This document shows, in pieces, positions 2,942-64,000 of a DNA stretch of 64,000 nt (positions are counted from its first letter, which is position 1; each line of letters begins with the position of its first letter). This stretch comes from Oscillospiraceae bacterium (GTDB lineage: Bacteria > Bacillota > Clostridia > Oscillospirales > CAG-382). Made by a program: the position numbers and the translations under genes. The stretch covers positions 3,324-67,323 of the forward strand of contig SVQU01000008.1 in NCBI GenBank assembly GCA_015065165.1, given 5' to 3'. The notes below the pieces were generated by a model. The model was not told the DNA's origin and searched no databases. It saw nothing but the letters and a program-made list of their open reading frames with translations.

Positions 2942-4666
2942 TCAATCCTCTGTAACTTCCTCTGCGGGTTTTATCCAGCCAAGGCGCAAAAGTCTTGCGG
3001 CAAGCCAATTGCCAAAGGGCAACAATCTTACCTCGTCCTCCTTAATACCGCGGAACACAAGCAGTGCGGCGGCATAGGAAACCACCATAGCCACGCCCGT
3101 TACAAGCAATATAACAAAGGATGCCAAGCGAGAATCCCAAGAGGATGCAAAAAACGTCTGCCATGCGGAAACACAGCCCTTATACACGAAGTATGTAATT
3201 ATACCCGAAACTGCGCCGCCAAGCAAAGGTCTGCCGAACAGCCCCTGAATTTTCAATTTTACACCGCAATATTTACGGATAAACCACACGTCCAAAAGCA
3301 TTACCGCAAAATAGCAGATAAGCGAGCTGGCGGGCGCGCCGTAGATACCAATAGGACTTCTCAACAGCAAAACCTCGGAAACAACGAGAACAGCAATACC
3401 CACCAAAACGGCAATAAAGGGCAAATGCGCCTTGCCGTAAGCGTTAAGCAACGCGTTGCAGATAGACACGGCAGAAATAAAGAACACCGCAAAGGCAAGA
3501 ACAGCCAAGGAATTTGCCGCGGCATCTATAGGCAAAAGCTGGGTTCCGTTTGCCATATTAAGCGCTTCGGACCAGTTTTTAACACCGTAAATAAGCGAAA
3601 TGCAGGAACGGCCCGCAACAAACAGAAATATTCCGCAGGGAATGGCAATAATTGCCGAAATACGGATTGCCTGAGTGGTAAGATTACCCGCAGTGCGAAG
3701 CTTTTTAACGGCAAGCGCACCCGAAACGGCGGGCAAAATACTTATGCCTATGGGGAAAACCAAGGTAGAGGGGAACAAATCGTAAATGGGCACGGAAAGC
3801 CCCGTATATGCCGAAAACAGTGTTTGGGCAACCTCAACGCTCTCGCCCGAATCCACAAGGCAGTTTACTATTATAAGTGTATCAAGGAACTGTGAAAAAT
3901 AAAGAGTTGCCGCTGTAAAGGTAACGGGAAGCGCAACCACCATAATAAGCTTTAGAAGCTTTTTGTCCCTTTCCACGCCCTTATCGGTATCGTTAAGCAC
4001 GGTTTTTTTAGAAAACTTAAGATACAAAAGTGTAAACAACGTGCCCAAAACCGAGCCGACCGTAACACCGCTTATGGCGCAAGCCGCCTGAAGGGGTATA
4101 TCCGCCCCGTGGTTCTTTGCGTAAATAACCGCGCCCAACCCAACGGCAAACTTAAAAAATGCCTCGATAAACTGGGAAACAGCGGTGGGGTTCATATTGC
4201 GAAGCCCTTGGAAATGGCCTCTTATTGCCGAGCAAACGCAAATGAAAAACAACGAAGGAGCGATAACGCGCATTGCCAACGCGCTTTCGGTATGGTTTGT
4301 AAGACGGGCAATATCGGGGGCGAAAATTATAAGCGCCACCGTAAACAATAACCCCAATATACCGAAAATAATGGTTGCAAGCAGGGTTATACGCTTTGCC
4401 TCGTTACCCCTGCCCTTTTCGTTGCTAGCCGCAACAAGCTTGCTCACCGCAACGGGCAGACCGCTTGTGCTAAGCATAAACAGCATTGCATAGATAGAAT
4501 AGGCGGCGGTGAAAACACCGATACTGTCGCCCAAAATATTCGTAAGAGGTATCTTAAACACAACCCCTATAATTTTAACGGCAAAATTGGCGATTGTAAG
4601 AACAACCGCCTCACGGAGAAAGCTTTTTCCGTTTTTTGCCGCAGATTCTTTAATTTCGTTACTCAT
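2942..4666 (-). CDS. MOP-superfamily polysaccharide/lipid II flippase (SpoVB/MurJ-like)
   Basis: 574 aa polytopic membrane protein. The N-terminus, FLREAVVLTIANFAVKIIGVVFKIPLTNILGD, is typical of SpoVB/MurJ-type flippases. Confidence 0.8.
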   Translation of the reverse strand: MSNEIKESAAKNGKSFLREAVVLTIANFAVKIIGVVFKIPLTNILGDSIGVFTAAYSIYAMLFMLSTSGLPVAVSKLVAASNEKGRGNEAKRITLLATIIFGILGLLFTVALIIFAPDIARLTNHTESALAMRVIAPSLFFICVCSAIRGHFQGLRNMNPTAVSQFIEAFFKFAVGLGAVIYAKNHGADIPLQAACAISGVTVGSVLGTLFTLLYLKFSKKTVLNDTDKGVERDKKLLKLIMVVALPVTFTAATLYFSQFLDTLIIVNCLVDSGESVEVAQTLFSAYTGLSVPIYDLFPSTLVFPIGISILPAVSGALAVKKLRTAGNLTTQAIRISAIIAIPCGIFLFVAGRSCISLIYGVKNWSEALNMANGTQLLPIDAAANSLAVLAFAVFFISAVSICNALLNAYGKAHLPFIAVLVGIAVLVVSEVLLLRSPIGIYGAPASSLICYFAVMLLDVWFIRKYCGVKLKIQGLFGRPLLGGAVSGIITYFVYKGCVSAWQTFFASSWDSRLASFVILLVTGVAMVVSYAAALLVFRGIKEDEVRLLPFGNWLAARLLRLGWIKPAEEVTED

Positions 4667-30089: not shown

Positions 30090-30485
30090 ATGAAATCGCA
30101 AAACGGCGAAGAAAGCATCCGCCGAGGGGACATATATTATGCCGATCTCAGCCCTGTTGTAGGCTCGGAGCAAGGCGGAATAAGGCCTGTATTAATTGTG
30201 CAGAACGATATGGGAAACAGATATAGCCCAACGGTTATTGCCGCCGCCATAACCAGTAAAACCGGCAAAACGAAATTGCCCACTCACATCGAGGTTTCTC
30301 CCACCGAAAGTATGGTGGGGATTAACGATTGCGGGCTTGCCAAAAACTCGGTAATTCTTCTTGAGCAGATTAGAACCCTTGATAAGCGCAGGTTAAAGGA
30401 GCGTATGGGCAAGCTCGACGACAAAACTATGCAACAGGTAGACAGCGCTATCGGCATAAGCTTTGGAATATACCCCCGAACCTAA
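30090..30485 (+). CDS. mazF: Type II toxin, mRNA interferase MazF/EndoA (PemK family)
   Basis: 131 aa with [46 protein letters not shown]...LPTHIEV...[17 protein letters not shown]. This closely follows the EndoA/NdoA pattern as I recall it. Confidence 0.9.
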
Positions 30486-32708: not shown

Positions 32709-32837
32709 TATGTTCCTCCGTTTCATATGCTTGCAGAATTTTTTGGAATTCTGTAGGTTGTTCTTATTTTTTATTATATTTTATACTTTATCAAAAATCA
32801 AGGGGTGTTAATATAATTATTATAGGGAGTGATAACT

Positions 32838-33803
32838 ATGAAAGCAAATATATACAGAAATTTTACGCTCGACAACTCTCTTGCGGCAATTTCGGCAACC
32901 CCTTTGGAAAGCCACACCCTTGCCACCGACGGCAGAAACTGTATTATACACCAAATCGACACTTGTGGCAGAAGCATCGGATGTCAAGCAACGTTGAGAC
33001 CTTTAAGGCGGTTAAGAAGCTATGGCTTTGGCTGTAGATTTACGGCTTTGGGCTGTTGCAACGACAAAACCTTGTATTTTTTGGACGAGAATTTGACCGA
33101 AACAGGCGCAGTGAGGTTGGATACAAGAAGCCTGCTGAATTGCAGAAGCTTTGGCGGATATTATAACTCGGGTAATTGCGGTTGTAACAACGGTTGCGGT
33201 AACGGTTGCAGCAACGGGGGCGGTTCGAGCTGCGGTTGTAACAATGGTTGTGGTTGTAACAATGGTTGCAGTTGTAACAATGATTGCGGTTGTAACAATG
33301 ATTGCGGTTGTAACAATGATTGCGGTTGTAACAATGGTTGCGGCGTATGTAACGGCGGAGGCAGTTGTAACAATAATTGCAGTATGTTATGCACGTGGGA
33401 TTGCGGATTGGCAAGCGAGCCTTTTTCGGAGCTTACGGATGCATCTCTGACCCAAATCGGAAACGAAACCTATATCGTAGGGGTATTTCCCAAGGGCGCT
33501 TATCTTTTCGACACAAACGGAACGCTTATAGAACAGCTTTGCAAAACCGACGGCAATGAAATTTTAACCGATTTTATTTATCTTCAAAGCGGGATTTTTG
33601 CCTTGTCTACCCTTTGCGGTAATCTGCGTACCGTTTCGGTTTATGACAACGGAAACGCCCAAAGCGGTATTTTGGACAGAAGCCACACCTTGAGAATGCT
33701 TATTGACGTTAACGGCGAAATATACGGACTTTTCGGGCAAAATTATATATACAATCGGATTGTAAAAATATATTCGGGCATATTAACGCTTCCCAAGGGT
33801 TGA
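32838..33803 (+). CDS. Hypothetical protein with an internal Cys/Asn/Gly-rich CGCNN[GD] repeat tract
   Basis: ATG 32838 lies 8 nt after GGGAG. No signal peptide. There are 22 Cys in a 79-residue stretch (33171..33407), flanked by beta-rich N- and C-terminal parts. Confidence 0.7.
   Translation: MKANIYRNFTLDNSLAAISATPLESHTLATDGRNCIIHQIDTCGRSIGCQATLRPLRRLRSYGFGCRFTALGCCNDKTLYFLDENLTETGAVRLDTRSLLNCRSFGGYYNSGNCGCNNGCGNGCSNGGGSSCGCNNGCGCNNGCSCNNDCGCNNDCGCNNDCGCNNGCGVCNGGGSCNNNCSMLCTWDCGLASEPFSELTDASLTQIGNETYIVGVFPKGAYLFDTNGTLIEQLCKTDGNEILTDFIYLQSGIFALSTLCGNLRTVSVYDNGNAQSGILDRSHTLRMLIDVNGEIYGLFGQNYIYNRIVKIYSGILTLPKG
33231..33338 (+). repeat. Six in-frame tandem 18-bp repeats (TGCGGTTGTAACAATGRT), each encoding CGCNN[GD]
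   Basis: Units start at 33231, 33249, 33267, 33285, 33303 and 33321. Units 4 and 5 are identical, and the others differ by 1-2 nt. Degenerate copies flank the array (33171-33230 and 33339-33407). Confidence 0.95.
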
Positions 33804-33823
33804 AAATTGTATATCAAGCAATA

Positions 33824-33853
33824 AAATACCCATTGAAAGGCGGTGGGTATTTT
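33824..33853 (+). terminator. Intrinsic terminator after the Cys-repeat gene
   Basis: AAATACCCA-loop-TGGGTATTT stem followed by a T-rich stretch. Confidence 0.6.
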
Positions 33854-33994
33854 GATTTGTCAAGCCGTTTTTATGACAACGGCATAAATTTTTTAAAAAA
33901 GAATATAAATGTTTTCAAGAGAGAGCGAAATTCGAGAAACATTCACGGTCGGTCCGACGTATACACTCGACTCTCTCGGAGAGGATGAAAACAA

Positions 33995-34507
33995 ATGAAA
34001 AAATCACTTGCCCTTTTAATGGTGTTAATACTTTTGTTTGCGGTTGCCTGCGCGAGCACTGCGCCGCACCGAAAAAGCATTTCTCTGCCCCTACGCTTTA
34101 CCGCGAATTTAAAGGGAACAAGCTCTGAATTTAACGTAATCATTACCGAAGACGAATGTATTATCGGATTTGACGAGAACCACCCCTTGTACGGTACCGA
34201 GCTTAGGTTTGATTCCTCGGGCGGAAGGGCGACTGTGGGAGATTTTTCAAGAGAGGTGGATTTGGACATTTTCCCTGCTCAAAAGGCGCTTTTGGAGGCA
34301 TTCCGAGGCATTTCATCGGGGAATGTAACCAAAACCGAAGAAGGCAACCAAACGCGGTATACTATTGACAAAATGACGATAATGGTATACTATGATGAAG
34401 ATAATAAAAACATAATCGGCATTGAAACGGAGGAAAACGGCAGGCGGTTTGCATTTGACATCGCCAAGCTTGAAGCCTATGAGATACAGAGCGACAGCGC
34501 AGGTTAA
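33995..34507 (+). CDS. Hypothetical lipoprotein
   Basis: MKKSLALLMVLILLFAVAC signal and lipobox-like cysteine. 170 aa. Its 3' end overlaps the alr start. Confidence 0.65.
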   Translation: MKKSLALLMVLILLFAVACASTAPHRKSISLPLRFTANLKGTSSEFNVIITEDECIIGFDENHPLYGTELRFDSSGGRATVGDFSREVDLDIFPAQKALLEAFRGISSGNVTKTEEGNQTRYTIDKMTIMVYYDEDNKNIIGIETEENGRRFAFDIAKLEAYEIQSDSAG

Positions 34508-35646: not shown

Positions 35647-36201
35647 TTATACCCAGCCGTCGGACCAGCCGTCGCCCACAGGAGGATTAGAGGATTCGTA
35701 AGGGTCGCATTTATAGGCCTTGTTAATGTCGTAAGTGCCGAAGTAAGCGCGTTTAACCTTGATATAGTTCATAGCGCGGATATCATCGCCCTCCATAACC
35801 TCTGCCGCACGCATCGCGGTAGCCGTTAGATTGTACTGACCTAAAACCGCGCGCTTTACTGCAAGGTAATCCATAGAGCCCAAGTTTCCGTCGCCGTCAA
35901 CATCTCCCATAACAACCAAGTTATAGAACAGGTTGTTATTAAGGCGAATTTTAAAGCCTGTACCGATATTAACGTCGGCATCTGCGGCAACCTCTTGTTG
36001 ATTTTTGTTGTAAATTTTCACGTCGTAAGATGAAAAAATATCGCGAAGAACGGTTTGAGGTGTATTAAGACCTATGCCGCAAAGTCTGCCCGATTCTACA
36101 ACGGGTTTGAAATCGACAACCTTTGCCGATGCGGTAGCGGAAAACGCCGAAGAAATTAAAACAACGGCAAGAACCAAAGCCAGAACCTTTGAGAATTTCA
36201 T
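35647..36201 (-). CDS. Small secreted dockerin-domain protein
   Basis: Signal peptide ending in ATASA. It has two calcium-binding dockerin repeats, GDVDGDGNLGSMDYLAVKRAVLG and EGDDIRAMNYIKVKRAYFG. Confidence 0.8.
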   Translation of the reverse strand: MKFSKVLALVLAVVLISSAFSATASAKVVDFKPVVESGRLCGIGLNTPQTVLRDIFSSYDVKIYNKNQQEVAADADVNIGTGFKIRLNNNLFYNLVVMGDVDGDGNLGSMDYLAVKRAVLGQYNLTATAMRAAEVMEGDDIRAMNYIKVKRAYFGTYDINKAYKCDPYESSNPPVGDGWSDGWV

Positions 36202-37543: not shown

Positions 37544-38791
37544 TTAAATCGTTTGATTTCCGAAATAAACGCGCTTTAGGGTGATATAGTCCATAGAATC
37601 TATAACGCCGTTGAAGTTAACGTCGGCAACCCTGATATCTCTTATTATGTACTTGCCGAAATATGCGCGCTTGATAACGAAATAGTCCAAAGCGTCGATA
37701 ACGCCGTTGTTGTTAACGTCGCCCACCAAAGCGGGAGCAGGCGCAGGTGTAAGGGGTTCATCACCGCCAACAAAGGGAGGCGCGCAATCTAACGCATCGG
37801 TAATTTCAAAGCCTGCATTGGTAAGTGTAATCGCGCTGTCAAAATTACCCGTTGCTTCGATATTTACGTTGTAAATCGTAACCCTTTTGCCAACCTTTGC
37901 TTCGTCGGCAAATTTATCATAGTCCGCTTCGTTATCACAAGAAACACCGATGATATAGGATTCGGCAGGGATAACAACAGCGGATTTATCGCTTTCGACG
38001 GAAACGTCAAGGTCAACGTAAGAAATAATACCGTTCAAATCGGCAACAAGAATGGCAAAACCACTCATTTTATCTTGATTCTCGGTAGGGGTGCAAAATT
38101 TATTTACAAATTCGCCCACCGTGATATCTTCTTTTGCATAATAAACAAGGTTACTTATATCGTCGAGATAACCCGCAGTTGTCAGTCTGATTACATCATC
38201 GGGAAAGCTTTCGGGCATCGCAGGCTGTACCGAATATTTTATAACAACGCTTTCAAGCTCTATTTCAGCCATTGTTTCCAAGCCGGTGTTATAGGCAATA
38301 ACGTTATCGAAGCTGAATACAAGGTCGGTCAGCTTTGCATCTTTGTTAACCATAAAGGGAATGGTGATAACCAATTCATCATCGTTTACAACCGTTGCTT
38401 CGCCCATAATATCCGAAAAAGCAAGGCTGTAAAAGCCTTCGTTGGAATCCAAAACACCAAAGCCCTCCCAATCGCCGGGGTTGGCTGTCATAAGGCTTCC
38501 GAAATCACCTGCATCGCCATCCGAATCCTCGGAAGCGGTAACAAGAGGTGAAAGCATCTCTTTGTCGTAATAAAGCTCGAATTCCAAAGCGGAAATGCCG
38601 TCGCCCTCGCCGAAATTAACGTCGCGCAGAGCGAGAACAAGATTGATTTCACTGTTAGAGTTATAATAATCAGAGGTGTTTTCGGTGCATACCGAAAAGG
38701 TCTTTGTATCATCCGTAACGGTAGCGGTTGCCACAACGAACAGGGGTGCAACCACAAGCAACGCCAGGAGGATTGCCAAAAGCTTTTTCAT
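37544..38791 (-). CDS. Secreted cohesin-like plus dockerin protein (adaptor/scaffoldin-like)
   Basis: Signal peptide. The N-terminal module has a cohesin-like pattern (ISALEFELYYDKEML...FYSLAFSD...ELVITIPFMVNKDAKLTDLVFSF). The C-terminal dockerin reads GDVNNNGVIDALDYFVIKRAYFG...ADVNFNGVIDSMDYITLKRVYFG. Confidence 0.7.
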   Translation of the reverse strand: MKKLLAILLALLVVAPLFVVATATVTDDTKTFSVCTENTSDYYNSNSEINLVLALRDVNFGEGDGISALEFELYYDKEMLSPLVTASEDSDGDAGDFGSLMTANPGDWEGFGVLDSNEGFYSLAFSDIMGEATVVNDDELVITIPFMVNKDAKLTDLVFSFDNVIAYNTGLETMAEIELESVVIKYSVQPAMPESFPDDVIRLTTAGYLDDISNLVYYAKEDITVGEFVNKFCTPTENQDKMSGFAILVADLNGIISYVDLDVSVESDKSAVVIPAESYIIGVSCDNEADYDKFADEAKVGKRVTIYNVNIEATGNFDSAITLTNAGFEITDALDCAPPFVGGDEPLTPAPAPALVGDVNNNGVIDALDYFVIKRAYFGKYIIRDIRVADVNFNGVIDSMDYITLKRVYFGNQTI

Positions 38792-53416: not shown

Positions 53417-53815
53417 ATGATTAAGGAACGCAACACAAAGCAAAAAATGTTAATATTAGAGACTGTGCGTTCCGTATGCACACATCCCACCGCCGAGCAG
53501 GTTTATGAAATGATTTCGGGCGAGATGCCGGGGTTAAGCCTGGGCACGGTTTACCGCAATCTTAACCGTATGGCAGAGCTTGGGCAGTTACGCCGTATTT
53601 CGGTTACCAATTCCCCCGACAGGTTCGATGGCAATATGTCCCCTCACCACCACATTTGCTGTGTGGAATGCGGCGAGTTTGGCGACAGGTTCGACCTTAA
53701 ATACGACGAAGCCTTGGACACTATGGCGGAAAAGAAAAGCGGGTATAAAATTATTAAGCACGAAACCGTTTTTTACGGGTTGTGTAAAAATTGCAAAACA
53801 AATTTAAAAAATTAA
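53417..53815 (+). CDS. perR: Fur-family transcriptional regulator (PerR-like)
   Basis: 132 aa with a winged-helix N-terminus (TKQKMLILETVRS...HPTAEQVY), HHHICCVECG and CKNC zinc sites. It lies immediately upstream of rubrerythrin. Confidence 0.8.
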   Translation: MIKERNTKQKMLILETVRSVCTHPTAEQVYEMISGEMPGLSLGTVYRNLNRMAELGQLRRISVTNSPDRFDGNMSPHHHICCVECGEFGDRFDLKYDEALDTMAEKKSGYKIIKHETVFYGLCKNCKTNLKN

Positions 53816-53842
53816 ATTTCAATATAAAAAAGGAGACCTATT

Positions 53843-54382
53843 ATGGAACTTAAAGGCAGCAAGACAGAACAGAATCTTATGACAGCGTTTGCAGGTGAAT
53901 CTCAGGCTCGTAACAAATACACCTATTACGCAAGCGAAGCAAAGAAGGCAGGCTATACCCTTATTGCCGACATCTTTGAAGAAACCGCAGGCAACGAAAA
54001 GGAACACGCAAAAATCTGGTTCAAGCTTCTTCACGATGGCAAGGTGCCCGATACTGCAACCAACCTTCTCGATGCAGCAGCAGGCGAAAACTATGAATGG
54101 ACCGAAATGTACGCTGAATTTGCAAAAACCGCAAAGGAAGAAGGCTTCGACCATATCGCATATCTCTTTGAAGCAGTAGGCAAGATTGAAAAGGAACACG
54201 AAGAAAGATATCGCGCTGTTCTTGAAAAGCTCAACACAGACACCATCTTCGTTTCTGAAGAAGTTCAGGTTTGGATCTGCACCAACTGCGGTCATATCCA
54301 CGTTGGCAAGAAGGCTCCCGAAATGTGCCCCGTTTGTCAGCATCCCAAGGCTTACTTCCAGAAGAAAGTTAACGCTTATTAA
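53843..54382 (+). CDS. rbr: Rubrerythrin
   Basis: 179 aa with the diiron four-helix motif [31 protein letters not shown], and a C-terminal rubredoxin-like CTNCGHIH...CPVCQHP. Confidence 0.95.
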
Positions 54383-54395
54383 TTTTAAATTCCCT

Positions 54396-54428
54396 AATCG
54401 GCAAGGAGAAATCTTTGCCGATTTTTTA
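54396..54428 (+). terminator. Intrinsic terminator after rbr
   Basis: AATCGGCAA-loop-TTGCCGATT stem followed by TTTTT. Confidence 0.8.
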
Positions 54429-54485
54429 TTGTAAAAACAAAAAAAGATTTGCTCCAAGGCAAACCCACAGAAAATATAAATAAAA

Positions 54486-55815: not shown

Positions 55816-57432
55816 TTACCGAATAACATAGGTTGCGAAATAAACACGCTTAAGAAGTGCATAGTCTACCGAGTCTATCTCATCGTTTTTATTAACGTCG
55901 CCGATTGTATTATCCGACAGCGCATAAGCACCGAAATAGGCACGTTTAAGAAGCATATAGTCGGTAGAATCAATTTCTTCATTACCGTTAATATCGCCGA
56001 TAAACAATACAGAGTTGATAGTTATTTTTGCGGTTGCAGAATAGGTGGTACCCTTGGTTTTATGGGTTGCGGTAACCGTTACCCAATAGGTACCCGCATC
56101 TACAGGGGCAGAAGAAAGCTTTGCGCCCACACTGCCGCCGTTGTCATTATACCAAACAGAGGTGAAATTATAATCACTCACGTTGCCGTTTTCAAGGGTG
56201 TAAACAACGTCCGCATTAGATTCGCCAACGGTGAGAGCGATTCCGTTATAATCTCTGTCGGTGGTGGCAAGAACAACGTTGGGAGTCGCAGGAACGTAAT
56301 CGGCAGAGGAAAGAGTTAAAATACTTTCGCTGTCGGTGCCCCAAAGCATTTTTGTTCCGTCGTCATAAATATAAGTAAGAGTTGTGGAAAGATAAGCCTT
56401 ATAACCTGCCGAAACCGAACCCGTAAGACCGTTGAGGAAAAGACCGCCGTCCTCACCCACAGAGCCGCTGTCGCTGTTGGTGGTATCCACCATATAGTTT
56501 TTACCGTCATCCATTGTAACGATATTCCACATATGGCCGCCGCCGTTGGTTGTGCCCACAACCGAATAGCAAACGATGTCCTCACTTTGGAAATCCGACA
56601 TATCGCAAAGATATTGGAAGCCCTTGGAATATCCCTCGCAAACAACCTTGGTGGAAGCATCGCCGTCGAAAATATGAATTAACTGCCAAGGGTCGCCATA
56701 GTCAGGATTTGCTTCCTCCAAAACCTCGAAGTTATAATCGGTAAGAGCGCAGATTTCATCGCGATAGGCAACCAATTTGTCATAATCGCCGTAGGAGGCG
56801 TATTTATTAACGATAGCCTTTGCGTTGGCAACCGATTTTGAAACCGTTTGTCCTACAGAAACCACGGGGGCGTCGGGGTTATAGTTTGTGGCTTGATAAC
56901 CCGTGCTTACGCTCATAACCGCAACGATTTTGGTAATTCTGTTACCAAGCGTACCTGCGCCAAAGCCATAGCCTTGGGTTTTATCAAACCAATAAAGGTC
57001 ATAGGGACAGTCGTTTAACAATGCCTCGAAAATTGCTTGGTGGTCAAATTGAGCAAAGAAGTTATTTACAGGGTCAGAGGTAAAAGAGGTTTTTACTCCT
57101 GTCCAGTTTGCCAATTCGGTAGAAGAAGCGTTAAACGTTGCAGAGGTTTGCTCCCCGCTTGCAACCTTTTCGATATTGGATTTCATCCAATCGTAGAAAT
57201 ATTGGTCAACCGAAGAAAGACGCTCTCTTGCAGAAACACCCCAGAAAGAAAACTCTCGCTCGGGGAAAAATGCATTTTCAACGTAACCCGCGAAAAGCTC
57301 GGAATTGTCGGGGAACTCAACATCGGGAACGTATCGGTTCATAACCAATTCCTCGGTTTCGGCAAAGGCGCCGAAGGGAACAGACATAACAAGAACAACT
57401 GTACAGATAAGCAAGGATAAAACGCGTTTCAT
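55816..57432 (-). CDS. Secreted transglutaminase-like (papain-fold Cys-His-Asp) protein with an Ig-like domain and a C-terminal dockerin
   Basis: Signal peptide. Core motifs are VVCEGYSKGFQYLC (Cys), GGGHMWNIV (His) and YMVDTTNSD (Asp). The dockerin reads GDINGNEEIDSTDYMLLKRAYFG...GDVNKNDEIDSVDYALLKRVYFA. Confidence 0.7.
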   Translation of the reverse strand: MKRVLSLLICTVVLVMSVPFGAFAETEELVMNRYVPDVEFPDNSELFAGYVENAFFPEREFSFWGVSARERLSSVDQYFYDWMKSNIEKVASGEQTSATFNASSTELANWTGVKTSFTSDPVNNFFAQFDHQAIFEALLNDCPYDLYWFDKTQGYGFGAGTLGNRITKIVAVMSVSTGYQATNYNPDAPVVSVGQTVSKSVANAKAIVNKYASYGDYDKLVAYRDEICALTDYNFEVLEEANPDYGDPWQLIHIFDGDASTKVVCEGYSKGFQYLCDMSDFQSEDIVCYSVVGTTNGGGHMWNIVTMDDGKNYMVDTTNSDSGSVGEDGGLFLNGLTGSVSAGYKAYLSTTLTYIYDDGTKMLWGTDSESILTLSSADYVPATPNVVLATTDRDYNGIALTVGESNADVVYTLENGNVSDYNFTSVWYNDNGGSVGAKLSSAPVDAGTYWVTVTATHKTKGTTYSATAKITINSVLFIGDINGNEEIDSTDYMLLKRAYFGAYALSDNTIGDVNKNDEIDSVDYALLKRVYFATYVIR

Positions 57433-60437: not shown

Positions 60438-60451
60438 ATAGTTAAAATGAT

Positions 60452-60600
60452 AAAGTTTCGGGGCGGGGCGAAATTCCCCACCGGCGGTAAAGTCCGCGAG
60501 CCTAGGGTTAAACCTACGGCACGAACCGGTGTAATTCCGGTACCGATCGTTAAAGTCGAGATGGGAGAAACAAATACACGCGTGATTTCACGCGCTTTTT
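60452..60600 (+). promoter_or_regulatory. FMN riboswitch (RFN element) with expression-platform terminator
   Basis: Conserved RFN core TTCGGGGCGGGGCGAAATTCCCCACCGGCGGTAAAGTCCGCGAGCC...GGTGTAATTCCGGTACCGATCGTTAAAGTCGAGATGGGAGAA. It is followed by a CGCGTG-ATTT-CACGCG hairpin plus CTTTTT (60579..60600). A riboflavin transporter gene lies downstream. Confidence 0.9.
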
Positions 60601-60636
60601 CCTCTTTCCCCCGATTTGTTCGGAGGTTTTTTATTT

Positions 60637-61230
60637 ATGAAAAAGAACAAGGTTGCCTATATGGCAAAAATCGGCGTATTGTCTGCATTGGCGGCGATAA
60701 TTATGCTTCTCGAATTCCCTTTGCCCTTCGCGCCCCCCTTTTACAAGCTTGATTTAAGCGAATCGGTGGTGCTTATGGCAGGCTTCGCAATGGGGCCTAT
60801 GGCGGCGGTGTTAACCGAATTTTTCAAAATTCTGCTTAACCTGATATTTAACGGCACGGCAACCGCATTCGTGGGTGAAATTTCCAACTTTTTCATTGGA
60901 GTTTCCTTTGTTTTGCCCGCCGCGTTGATTTATAAAAAGCACAAAACCTTTGGTTTTGCTTTGTTAGGTATGGTTACGGGGGCGGTTTCTTTGGTTGTCT
61001 TCGGTTCGCTTATGAATTATTACGTAATGATTCCCGCTTATGCGAAATTTATGGTTCCTATGGAGACTATCGTTAATATGGGCAACGCGGTAAATCCCAA
61101 AATCGACAGCCTTTGGACCTTGGTTTTGTTTGCTACCATTCCCTTTAATTTGCTTAAGGGCGTTATTTGCTCGATACTCGCCACCTTGGTTTATAAACGA
61201 GTTTCGCCGATTTTGCATAAAGAATTCTAA
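60637..61230 (+). CDS. ribU: ECF-transporter S component for riboflavin (RibU/FmnP)
   Basis: About 197 aa with 6 TM helices (IGVLSALAAIIMLLEFPLPFAPPFYKLDLSE). It lies directly behind the FMN riboswitch. ATG 60637 is preferred to the track's 60616. Confidence 0.85.
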   Translation: MKKNKVAYMAKIGVLSALAAIIMLLEFPLPFAPPFYKLDLSESVVLMAGFAMGPMAAVLTEFFKILLNLIFNGTATAFVGEISNFFIGVSFVLPAALIYKKHKTFGFALLGMVTGAVSLVVFGSLMNYYVMIPAYAKFMVPMETIVNMGNAVNPKIDSLWTLVLFATIPFNLLKGVICSILATLVYKRVSPILHKEF

Positions 61231-63889: not shown

Positions 63890-63925
63890 TGCGAGACTTC
63901 TGATAAGGAAGTCTCGCAGTTTTAT
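63890..63925 (+). terminator. Intrinsic terminator after the FAD-protein gene
   Basis: 11-bp stem TGCGAGACTTC / GAAGTCTCGCA with a TGATAAG loop, followed by GTTTTATT. Confidence 0.8.
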
Positions 63926-64000
63926 TCGCCTTAGGCGAGTGATATTGCTACGCAGTGATATTATGCTTCGCATAGTTATATTGCCTACGGCAGTTTAAGG
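63923..64000. repeat. Array of short triloop hairpins separated by GTGATATT-like spacers, truncated by the window end
   Basis: TCGCC-TTA-GGCGA GTGATAT TGC-TAC-GCA GTGATAT TATGC-TTC-GCATA GTTATAT TGCC-TAC-GGCA GTTTAAGG. Confidence 0.6.

Follow-up and report, generated by a model that had tools for sequence, protein, structure and literature searches.

What might a run of 22 cysteines in 79 residues be doing inside a bacterial protein of 321 residues? The question is raised by a gene in a 64,000-nucleotide stretch of Oscillospiraceae bacterium contig SVQU01000008.1 (positions 3,324 to 67,323 of the forward strand), which we refer to as a whole as the window and whose coordinates are used throughout unless another locus is named. 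The tract consists largely of Cys, Asn, Gly and Asp and is built in part from 18-bp tandem repeats; an earlier reading made from the letters of the window (the sequence-only reading) had compared it both with metallothioneins and with the cross-linking proteins of spore coats and exosporia. Our comparisons place the protein in an undescribed propeller family with what appears to be a selected, repeat-expandable Cys loop, and it is this combination that is new, since a propeller scaffold and a Cys-rich metal-binding segment are each of known kinds. The best reading of the tract, which we put forward tentatively, is a thiolate-rich, metallothionein-like metal-binding appendage on the propeller.

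A cysteine tract encoded by in-frame repeats

The gene and its repeats comprise the following features.

32838..33803 (+): coding sequence, 321 aa plus stop, supported by the open reading frame (ORF), by homologues and by flanks modelled by AlphaFold2 (AF2) at a predicted local distance difference test score (pLDDT) >90
32825..32831 (+): putative ribosome-binding site GGGAGTG, six nt before the ATG, read from the sequence
33171..33407 (+): Cys/Asn/Gly/Asp tract of 79 residues (112–190) with 22 Cys, by translation in the ORF frame
33179..33224 (+): older, degenerate 12/24-bp array of CNNG/CGNG/CSNG units (Tandem Repeats Finder period 12, 3.2 copies, 77% matches; also period 24)
33231..33343 (+): young 18-bp array of 6.3 copies encoding CGCNN[G/D] (Tandem Repeats Finder, 93% matches, score 191)

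The start codon is the ATG at 32838; homologues begin at the equivalent position, and a GGGAGTG/GGAG element also precedes the start in related loci. The interval 33171..33407 translates exactly as the sequence-only reading had quoted it, with 22 Cys in 79 residues and six 18-bp units. Cys codons within it are divided between TGC (12) and TGT (10), and in the 68-residue core, which is composed of Cys, Asn, Gly, Ser and Asp plus a single Val, successive cysteines lie two residues apart seven times and four apart nine times. The 18-bp array has the Tandem Repeats Finder consensus TGCGGTTGTAACAATGAT; read in register its units encode CGCNNG, CGCNNG, CSCNND, CGCNND, CGCNND and CGCNNG. Units 4 and 5 are identical, as are units 1 and 6, the remaining units being 1–2 nt apart.

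This Cys density is by far the highest in the window: a count of 22 in 79 residues stands against a median of 3 among 169 stop-free frames 100 codons or longer, and next in rank comes the antisense frame of the same repeat. Three overlapping ORFs, at 33040..33414 (−), 33151..33450 (+) and 33161..33394 (−), are rejected as genes and regarded as stop-free by-products of the repeat, because only the CGCNN frame links both conserved halves of the protein. That the ORF and its frame are genuine, as the sequence-only reading had assumed, is borne out by 54 homologues at E ≤ 1e-31, in which the flanks of the tract are conserved in the ORF frame.

An undescribed family of predicted propellers

A search of 5.8 billion proteins returned these 54 homologues at E-values from 1e-151 to 1e-31. 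None carries a functional name (one is labelled 'hypothetical protein') or a Pfam domain. When 1.84 billion cluster representatives were searched exhaustively with a profile, only 82 proteins were found at E ≤ 1e-3, and those with the weakest scores are FG-GAP/Kelch propellers aligned over single blades. The earlier statement that no described family matches was upheld: Pfam gave no family for the window protein even at E ≤ 10, none at E ≤ 10 for three isolated tracts and no model reached by any of 73 family members at E ≤ 0.1, and NCBIfam gave no match for the window protein, the rows TafF and UasX (E = 0.6–3) being dismissed as composition noise. The tract has no sequence match in PDB. Searched on its own against the 5.8 billion proteins it returned nothing at E ≤ 1e-3, a result that we do not take as evidence of uniqueness because P0001 and P0002, both known relatives, were missed by it as well; composition correction removes matches of this kind.

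All 22 genomic loci recovered lie in metagenome-assembled genomes of uncultured Clostridia/Eubacteriales, and those record titles that name a host refer to the gut of sheep, goat, yak or water buffalo. By these searches the family is an undescribed one whose members come only from uncultured Clostridia/Eubacteriales of the gut. Seventeen long contigs, one of them from a Joint Genome Institute (JGI) metagenome, encode a protein identical to that of the window. A degenerate DNA pattern for the peptide MLCTWDCG found three unrelated chance matches in metagenome contigs and no extra strains.

When modelled by AF2 with the family alignment, the window protein shows pLDDT >90 for residues 1–102 and 193–321 and <50 for residues 103–192. 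A short-loop member, P0016 (239 aa), is modelled at pLDDT 92.2 with a predicted template modelling score (pTM) of 0.89. Both models contain 20 beta-strands arranged as five four-stranded blades over ~230 residues, and divide the window protein as follows.

32838..33143 (+): residues 1–102, predicted N-terminal closure strand and blades 1 and 2, with conserved C35, R54/R57/R60 and the C73-C74 pair (strands E7-9 to E88-93, pLDDT 84–97)
33144..33413 (+): residues 103–192, predicted disordered loop connecting blades 2 and 3 (pLDDT <50)
33414..33800 (+): residues 193–321, predicted blades 3–5, with invariant D201, C235 and E241 and a GLFGxxYIYN motif (strands E201-207 to E305-312, pLDDT 95–97)

The window protein is thus confidently predicted to be a five-bladed beta-propeller, probably a soluble and cytoplasmic one. 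Strand counting makes it most likely that the N-terminal strand closes the last blade, and the earlier claim that the protein lacks a signal peptide holds, this strand being part of the fold. The same reading had described ordinary beta-rich regions on either side of the tract; the beta structure is supported by the models, but they show two halves of one propeller and not two separate domains. In the models the tract forms the connection from strand D of blade 2 to strand A of blade 3.

Comparison of the compact model with known structures by Foldseek returned only generic propellers at 9–13% identity. The best template modelling (TM) scores were to the glutaminyl cyclases 2iwa (TMq/TMt 0.62/0.59) and 3nol (0.58/0.59) and to the NHL domain of Brat (0.57). 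A profile search of PDB sequences gave a one-blade match to the TRIM2/3 NHL domain (E ~6e-6) with no significant stretch, and did not find the glutaminyl cyclase entries at E ≤ 1. The likeness to five-bladed glutaminyl cyclases and to the NHL propellers of Brat and TRIM2/3 is therefore one of fold class (TM 0.57–0.62). NHL domains have six blades and not five, and neither the window protein nor the 73 members match Pfam NHL; Glu_cyclase_2 is likewise unmatched among the 73 members, at 9–13% identity. Unlike the window protein, neither of these families has a Cys-rich insertion between blades.

By propeller convention the D-A and B-C loops share one face. The conserved polar residues N13, D31, C35, R54, R57, C73, C74, D201, C235 and E241 lie in or beside such loops, so the tract would emerge from the conserved face of the propeller. 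We infer from this topology that it shares that face with C35, C73/C74 and the invariant C235.

Cysteines in the loop across the family

We took loop lengths between the anchors L94 and D201 in 55 aligned proteins. The loop between blades 2 and 3 spans 14–142 residues; it is longest in P0001 (142), the window protein (106) and P0002 (96), and most members have linkers of 14–27 residues. Cysteine is present in this loop in every one of the 55 members, 50 of which have at least two, and accounts for 17% of linker residues (16% in 46 short non-repetitive linkers) compared to 3.9% elsewhere in the proteins. The typical pattern in the family core is CxCxCxC, with short forms such as GCGCSCGC and CxxxCGCxCGC. 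P0003 and P0004 carry intermediate linkers, which lack repeats and have a high content of Cys, His, Asp and Glu; in the P0004 cluster all 12 full-length members are 282 aa long. Among distant relatives (<~35% identity) the loop shrinks to 7–16 residues and is often free of Cys, and the equivalent of C235 is lost. Linker Cys and the C235 equivalent tend to occur together (56/57 vs 6/16, P = 1.3e-7, a value not corrected for phylogeny).

Some members also end in a Cys-bearing tail. Tails with 1–3 Cys (NCFCHC, NCFCDAV, SCFCTC, GNCC, NCFCSC) occur in 23 of the 55 proteins, including P0017, P0021, P0031, P0036 and P0049; the window protein and its closest relatives are without one. Such tails are found in one of seven long-linker members and 22 of the 48 others, although these counts are small.

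The conservation of C35, C73/C74 and C235 on the propeller and their co-occurrence with loop Cys could also indicate a redox or sulfur carrier, that is, a thiol/disulfide or persulfide/polysulfide relay, or Fe-S ligation, in an anaerobic habitat rich in sulfide. The host lives in the gut as an anaerobe, and an adjacent CC pair together with CxC motifs is compatible with redox chemistry. However, the protein has no canonical CxxC redox motif and no Fe-S binding spacing, and there are no thioredoxin, sulfurtransferase or Fe-S assembly genes nearby. A relay would in any case not need dozens of repeated cysteines, and we regard this explanation as improbable.

Growth of the tract and selection on its periodicity

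The window, locus L023 (encoding P0001) and locus L024 (encoding P0002) represent sister species with about 80–87% DNA identity and shared gene order, and their tracts have the following repeat structures.

Window tract: 18 bp x 6.3
L023 (P0001) tract: 12 bp x 16.8, with a 60-bp higher-order period
L024 (P0002) tract: 12/24/78-bp periods

As the three sister species use differing repeat units, slippage or unequal exchange must have acted repeatedly and independently. Length also varies between near-identical strains within one 90% cluster: P0002 (311 aa) and P0130 (329 aa) have flanks that are ~98% identical, with five differing positions, but the tract of one exceeds that of the other by an in-frame block of 18 residues (both proteins come from short-read assemblies). 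Growth by slippage and in-frame variation in copy number, both predicted by the sequence-only reading, are thus matched by this indel in a sister lineage and by the three differing arrays.

The array of L023 has diverged enough for its codons to be compared. Across its 19 units the Gly and Cys codons show no changes at 76 first and second positions, compared to 14 changes at 38 third positions (Fisher P = 3e-8); the third positions are A, T or G in Gly codons and only C or T in Cys codons. Since slippage would homogenise all three codon positions to the same degree, the asymmetry indicates that purifying selection maintains the Gly-Cys periodicity of this array.

These data bear on a competing explanation, in which the expansion is simply tolerated. 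Here the short ancestral Cys loop would be functional, perhaps as a small metal or redox site, and the long tract would be a nearly neutral, low-complexity product of slippage, constrained only to remain in frame, soluble and non-toxic. The short linkers of most members, the predicted disorder of the tract and its differing length between near-identical strains and between sister species are all consistent with this, as is the youth of the window's own 18-bp units (93% matches), which carry no selection signal of their own. Against it stands the codon asymmetry in the older L023 array (0/76 vs 14/38), which shows that selection at the protein level retains the Gly and Cys of every unit. In addition, three species keep long tracts of one restricted composition despite a DNA divergence of about 15–20%, and the identical protein recurs on 17 contigs. 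We consider tolerated expansion rather unlikely as a full account of the tract.

The locus shares with the repeats of surface and contingency genes the presence of tandem repeats within a coding sequence that vary in copy number between close strains. It differs in that its 12- and 18-bp units give no on/off switch, the protein is predicted to be cytoplasmic, and the encoded sequence is Cys-rich, not Ser/Thr/Pro-rich or collagen-like. A phase-variable contingency locus was ruled out, since every unit length is divisible by three; the variants observed are all in frame.

A possible metal-binding appendage

The scenario that we favour as the best reading of the tract begins with the Cys-bearing loop of the family core between blades 2 and 3, the cysteines of which would lie on the conserved Cys face of the propeller. 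In the lineage of the window, replication slippage on in-frame 12-bp and 18-bp units turned this loop into a predicted disordered tract of 80–90 residues, nearly all of them Cys, Asn, Gly, Ser or Asp, and selection keeps the Gly-Cys periodicity as copy number drifts among strains and species. The product would be a flexible, high-capacity thiolate ligand, a metallothionein-like appendage able to sequester soft metal ions (Zn, Cu(I), Ni, Cd) or to hand them over to, or hold them beside, the Cys-lined face of the propeller, with a metal capacity that scales with the number of repeats. We infer the same-face geometry, the binding of metal and the choice of metal alike.

Several observations favour metal binding: loop Cys is enriched in all core members and coupled to C235, the L023 array bears the mark of Gly-Cys selection, the intermediate linkers are rich in His, Asp and Glu, C-terminal Cys tails occur in part of the family, three sister species enlarged the loop independently with differing units, an in-frame indel sets apart strains with ~98% identical flanks, and the protein recurs on 17 contigs. 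The prediction that the protein resides in the cytoplasm of an anaerobe, in which thiols remain reduced, fits as well. The tract also has the composition expected of a metallothionein, with very high Cys content in CxC/CxxC-type motifs and few aromatic residues.

CxC motifs with Gly and Asn spacers are typical of plant-type metallothioneins. Like these (family 15) and other metallothioneins, the tract contains ~28% Cys in CxC and Cx3C patterns, spaced by Gly, Asn, Ser and Asp; it is nearly devoid of aromatic or hydrophobic residues and predicted to be unstructured without metal. Unlike them it is a loop inside a 321-aa propeller and not a stand-alone polypeptide under about 10 kDa, and it is encoded by near-perfect tandem DNA repeats with copy-number variation. 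Metallochaperones offer a second comparison. SlyD carries a disordered C-terminal tail rich in Cys, His and Gly, which in E. coli contains GCGC-type motifs and binds metal, and HypB has an N-terminal CxxCGC site. As in these proteins, a folded domain bears a disordered, compositionally biased and length-variable Cys-rich segment with GCGC-type motifs, and some family members add C-terminal CFCHC/GNCC tails or have His-rich intermediate linkers. The carrier is however a propeller, not an FKBP or GTPase domain, the segment is internal and not terminal, and no hydrogenase or urease maturation genes are found near the gene.

Other observations weigh against a role in metal binding. There is no metal-homeostasis gene and no recognisable metal-responsive operator nearby, the conserved neighbours being a DUF4855 protein, a lipoprotein, alanine racemase, NnrD and MazF. 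Neither the protein nor the tract is matched by a Pfam metallothionein model at a threshold as loose as E ≤ 10. Most members have just 1–5 loop cysteines, so that a large capacity is not needed for the core function. The window's young 18-bp array is too uniform to give a selection signal of its own, since slippage of a Cys-containing seed propagates Cys automatically. Finally, that the loop lies close to C35, C73/C74 and C235 is deduced from topology, for a tract that is itself predicted to be disordered. A stronger form of the proposal, in which the protein would represent a new class of metal buffer, a metallothionein anchored on a propeller and tuned in capacity by slippage of in-frame Cys-Gly-Cys-Asn repeats, is doubtful at present.

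A precursor of a ribosomally synthesised and post-translationally modified peptide (RiPP), or a radical S-adenosylmethionine (SAM) substrate, was also considered and rejected: the radical-SAM genes of the window are distant ones with housekeeping roles, and the tract is part of a folded protein.

Promoters, neighbouring genes and the spore-coat proposal

The regions flanking the gene contain the following elements.

32788..32817 (+): candidate sigma-70-type promoter TTATCA-N18-TATAAT, 10/12 consensus matches, ending 20 nt before the ATG
32773..32801 (−): divergent candidate sigma-70-type promoter TTGATT-N17-TATAAT, present in 17/20 intergenic regions, window counted
33823..33853 (+): hairpin with a 13-bp stem followed by a U-rich stretch, the first terminator-like element after the stop, by RNA folding
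33864..33893 (+): second terminator-like hairpin with a T-run, from a terminator scan and also in the minimum free energy (MFE) structure

By consensus match, a comparable −35/−10 pair lies 19–29 nt upstream of the start in 10 of 19 related loci in addition to the window. Regular-expression consensus scans found patterns for sigma-E, F or G in none of 20 upstream regions and for sigma-K in one, which is the chance level. A conserved motif, AAATCAAG...TTATTATA, is accounted for by the minus-strand TTGATT-N17-TATAAT. An upstream leader RNA or riboswitch, suggested by the conserved AAAAATCAAG and TTATTATA, was rejected on the same grounds, these motifs being read as the minus-strand promoter, and Rfam is blank there. 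The minus-strand element is kept also in L012 and L020, two loci without a divergently oriented upstream gene, and it may therefore drive something besides the neighbouring gene.

Downstream of the gene, the RNA fold of 33800..33900 has an energy of −26.6 kcal/mol (z = −3.74), and none of 200 shuffles is as stable. With two terminator-like hairpins after its stop, the gene is probably monocistronic in the window. The surrounding order, YfjL_N > PemK/MazF > DUF4855 < (SGNH hydrolase <) Cys-propeller > (NnrD-type Carb_kinase >) 170-aa lipoprotein > alanine racemase >, is conserved in 18–21 of 22 loci and contains no gene for metal homeostasis, sporulation or redox functions. Despite this order an operon with alanine racemase is not established, as a 191-nt spacer and the two hairpins follow the gene, and the arrangement may be simple synteny at the level of the clade.

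The sequence-only reading had suggested a place at the spore surface, and a structural cross-linker in a spore or other envelope layer, comparable to CotY/ExsY or CsxA/CdeC and with the tract forming intermolecular disulfides, is the remaining alternative. Like CotY, CotZ and ExsY of Bacilli and CsxA, CsxC and CdeC of Clostridia, this is a Cys-rich Firmicute protein without a signal peptide. Its very high Cys content, its source in the Clostridia and the neighbouring alanine racemase gene would suit such a role, and Cys-rich, self-assembling proteins with unrelated folds recur in spore envelopes by convergence (bioRxiv 10.64898/2026.09.03.749163). However, CsxA, CsxC and CdeC are DUF3794/SPOCS proteins with cysteines in lattice contacts (bioRxiv 10.64898/2026.09.03.749163), and known spore cross-linkers hold their Cys in such folded contacts and not in disordered Asn/Gly tracts. 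The window protein and the 73 members have no DUF3794/SPOCS or CotZ-type match and a predicted propeller fold, with Cys in a disordered repeat; the promoter candidates are sigma-70-like, and the consensus scans of 20 upstream regions showed no recurrent sporulation-type pattern. The lack of a signal peptide and the synteny with housekeeping genes, conserved at clade level, point the same way. Nor does the window contain a firm sporulation gene. The earlier mention of sporulation genes in the organism finds a sole match there, a SpoVB/MurJ-like flippase scoring 205 bits against an equivalog cutoff of 372. The proposed link to the coat or exosporium is thus unsupported, and we consider a cross-linking role very unlikely.

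Further observations concern the neighbours themselves. The 170-aa predicted lipoprotein (33995..34507, +) lies between the Cys-propeller and alanine racemase genes in 18 of 22 loci and has no Pfam or NCBIfam match. An NnrD-type Carb_kinase gene stands between the Cys-propeller and lipoprotein genes in L023 (6736..7542 of that locus), L010, L013, L014, L016, L018 and L022; it is absent from the window, where the 191-nt spacer with its hairpins takes its place. No MazE-type antitoxin ORF could be recognised within the 160 nt that precede the PemK/MazF-type toxin gene (30090..30485, +). The gene ahead of it encodes a membrane YfjL_N protein of 350 aa, and the pair is conserved in 18 related loci.

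Other features of the window

The remainder of the window is of housekeeping character, with smc, ftsY, cdaA, recJ, relA, topA, dprA, plsX, murB, whiA, dnaE, a class A penicillin-binding protein (PBP) and trkAH. A MurJ/Polysacc_synt flippase gene at 2942..4666 (−) adjoins a MazG/YabN-like gene and appears to be a YabM-type paralogue rather than a sporulation gene. A Fur/PerR-like regulator is encoded at 53417..53815 (+), with a rubrerythrin-like gene after it at 53843..54382 (+); a Cys-rich 212-aa ORF at 53819..54457, on the strand opposite the latter, was rejected as an antisense artefact. Cohesin- or dockerin-bearing proteins are encoded at 35647..36201, 37544..38791 and 55816..57432 (all −), which suggests a cellulosome-like surface system in the organism. 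Two RNA elements were also recognised, a full-length flavin mononucleotide (FMN) riboswitch at 60450..60576 (+, 104.9 bits) upstream of an ORF at 60616..61230, and a match to the Gut-1 small RNA (sRNA) at 63917..63986 (+, 58.1 bits) at the end of the window.

Implications

Few metallothionein-like proteins are known from bacteria, and they are poorly catalogued because homology searches miss them. If the tract described here binds metal, it would represent a new route for the construction of such proteins, in which a repeat-expandable thiolate loop is grafted on a folded scaffold and its capacity varies between strains. Even under another function, the locus offers a clean natural example of a coding repeat with a selected amino-acid periodicity and a drifting length. 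Should the metal-binding reading prove true, gut anaerobes could adjust their thiolate capacity between strains, with the propeller face as a docking or delivery site, and a function would be provided for a protein conserved in an abundant uncultured lineage of Clostridia from ruminant and other guts.

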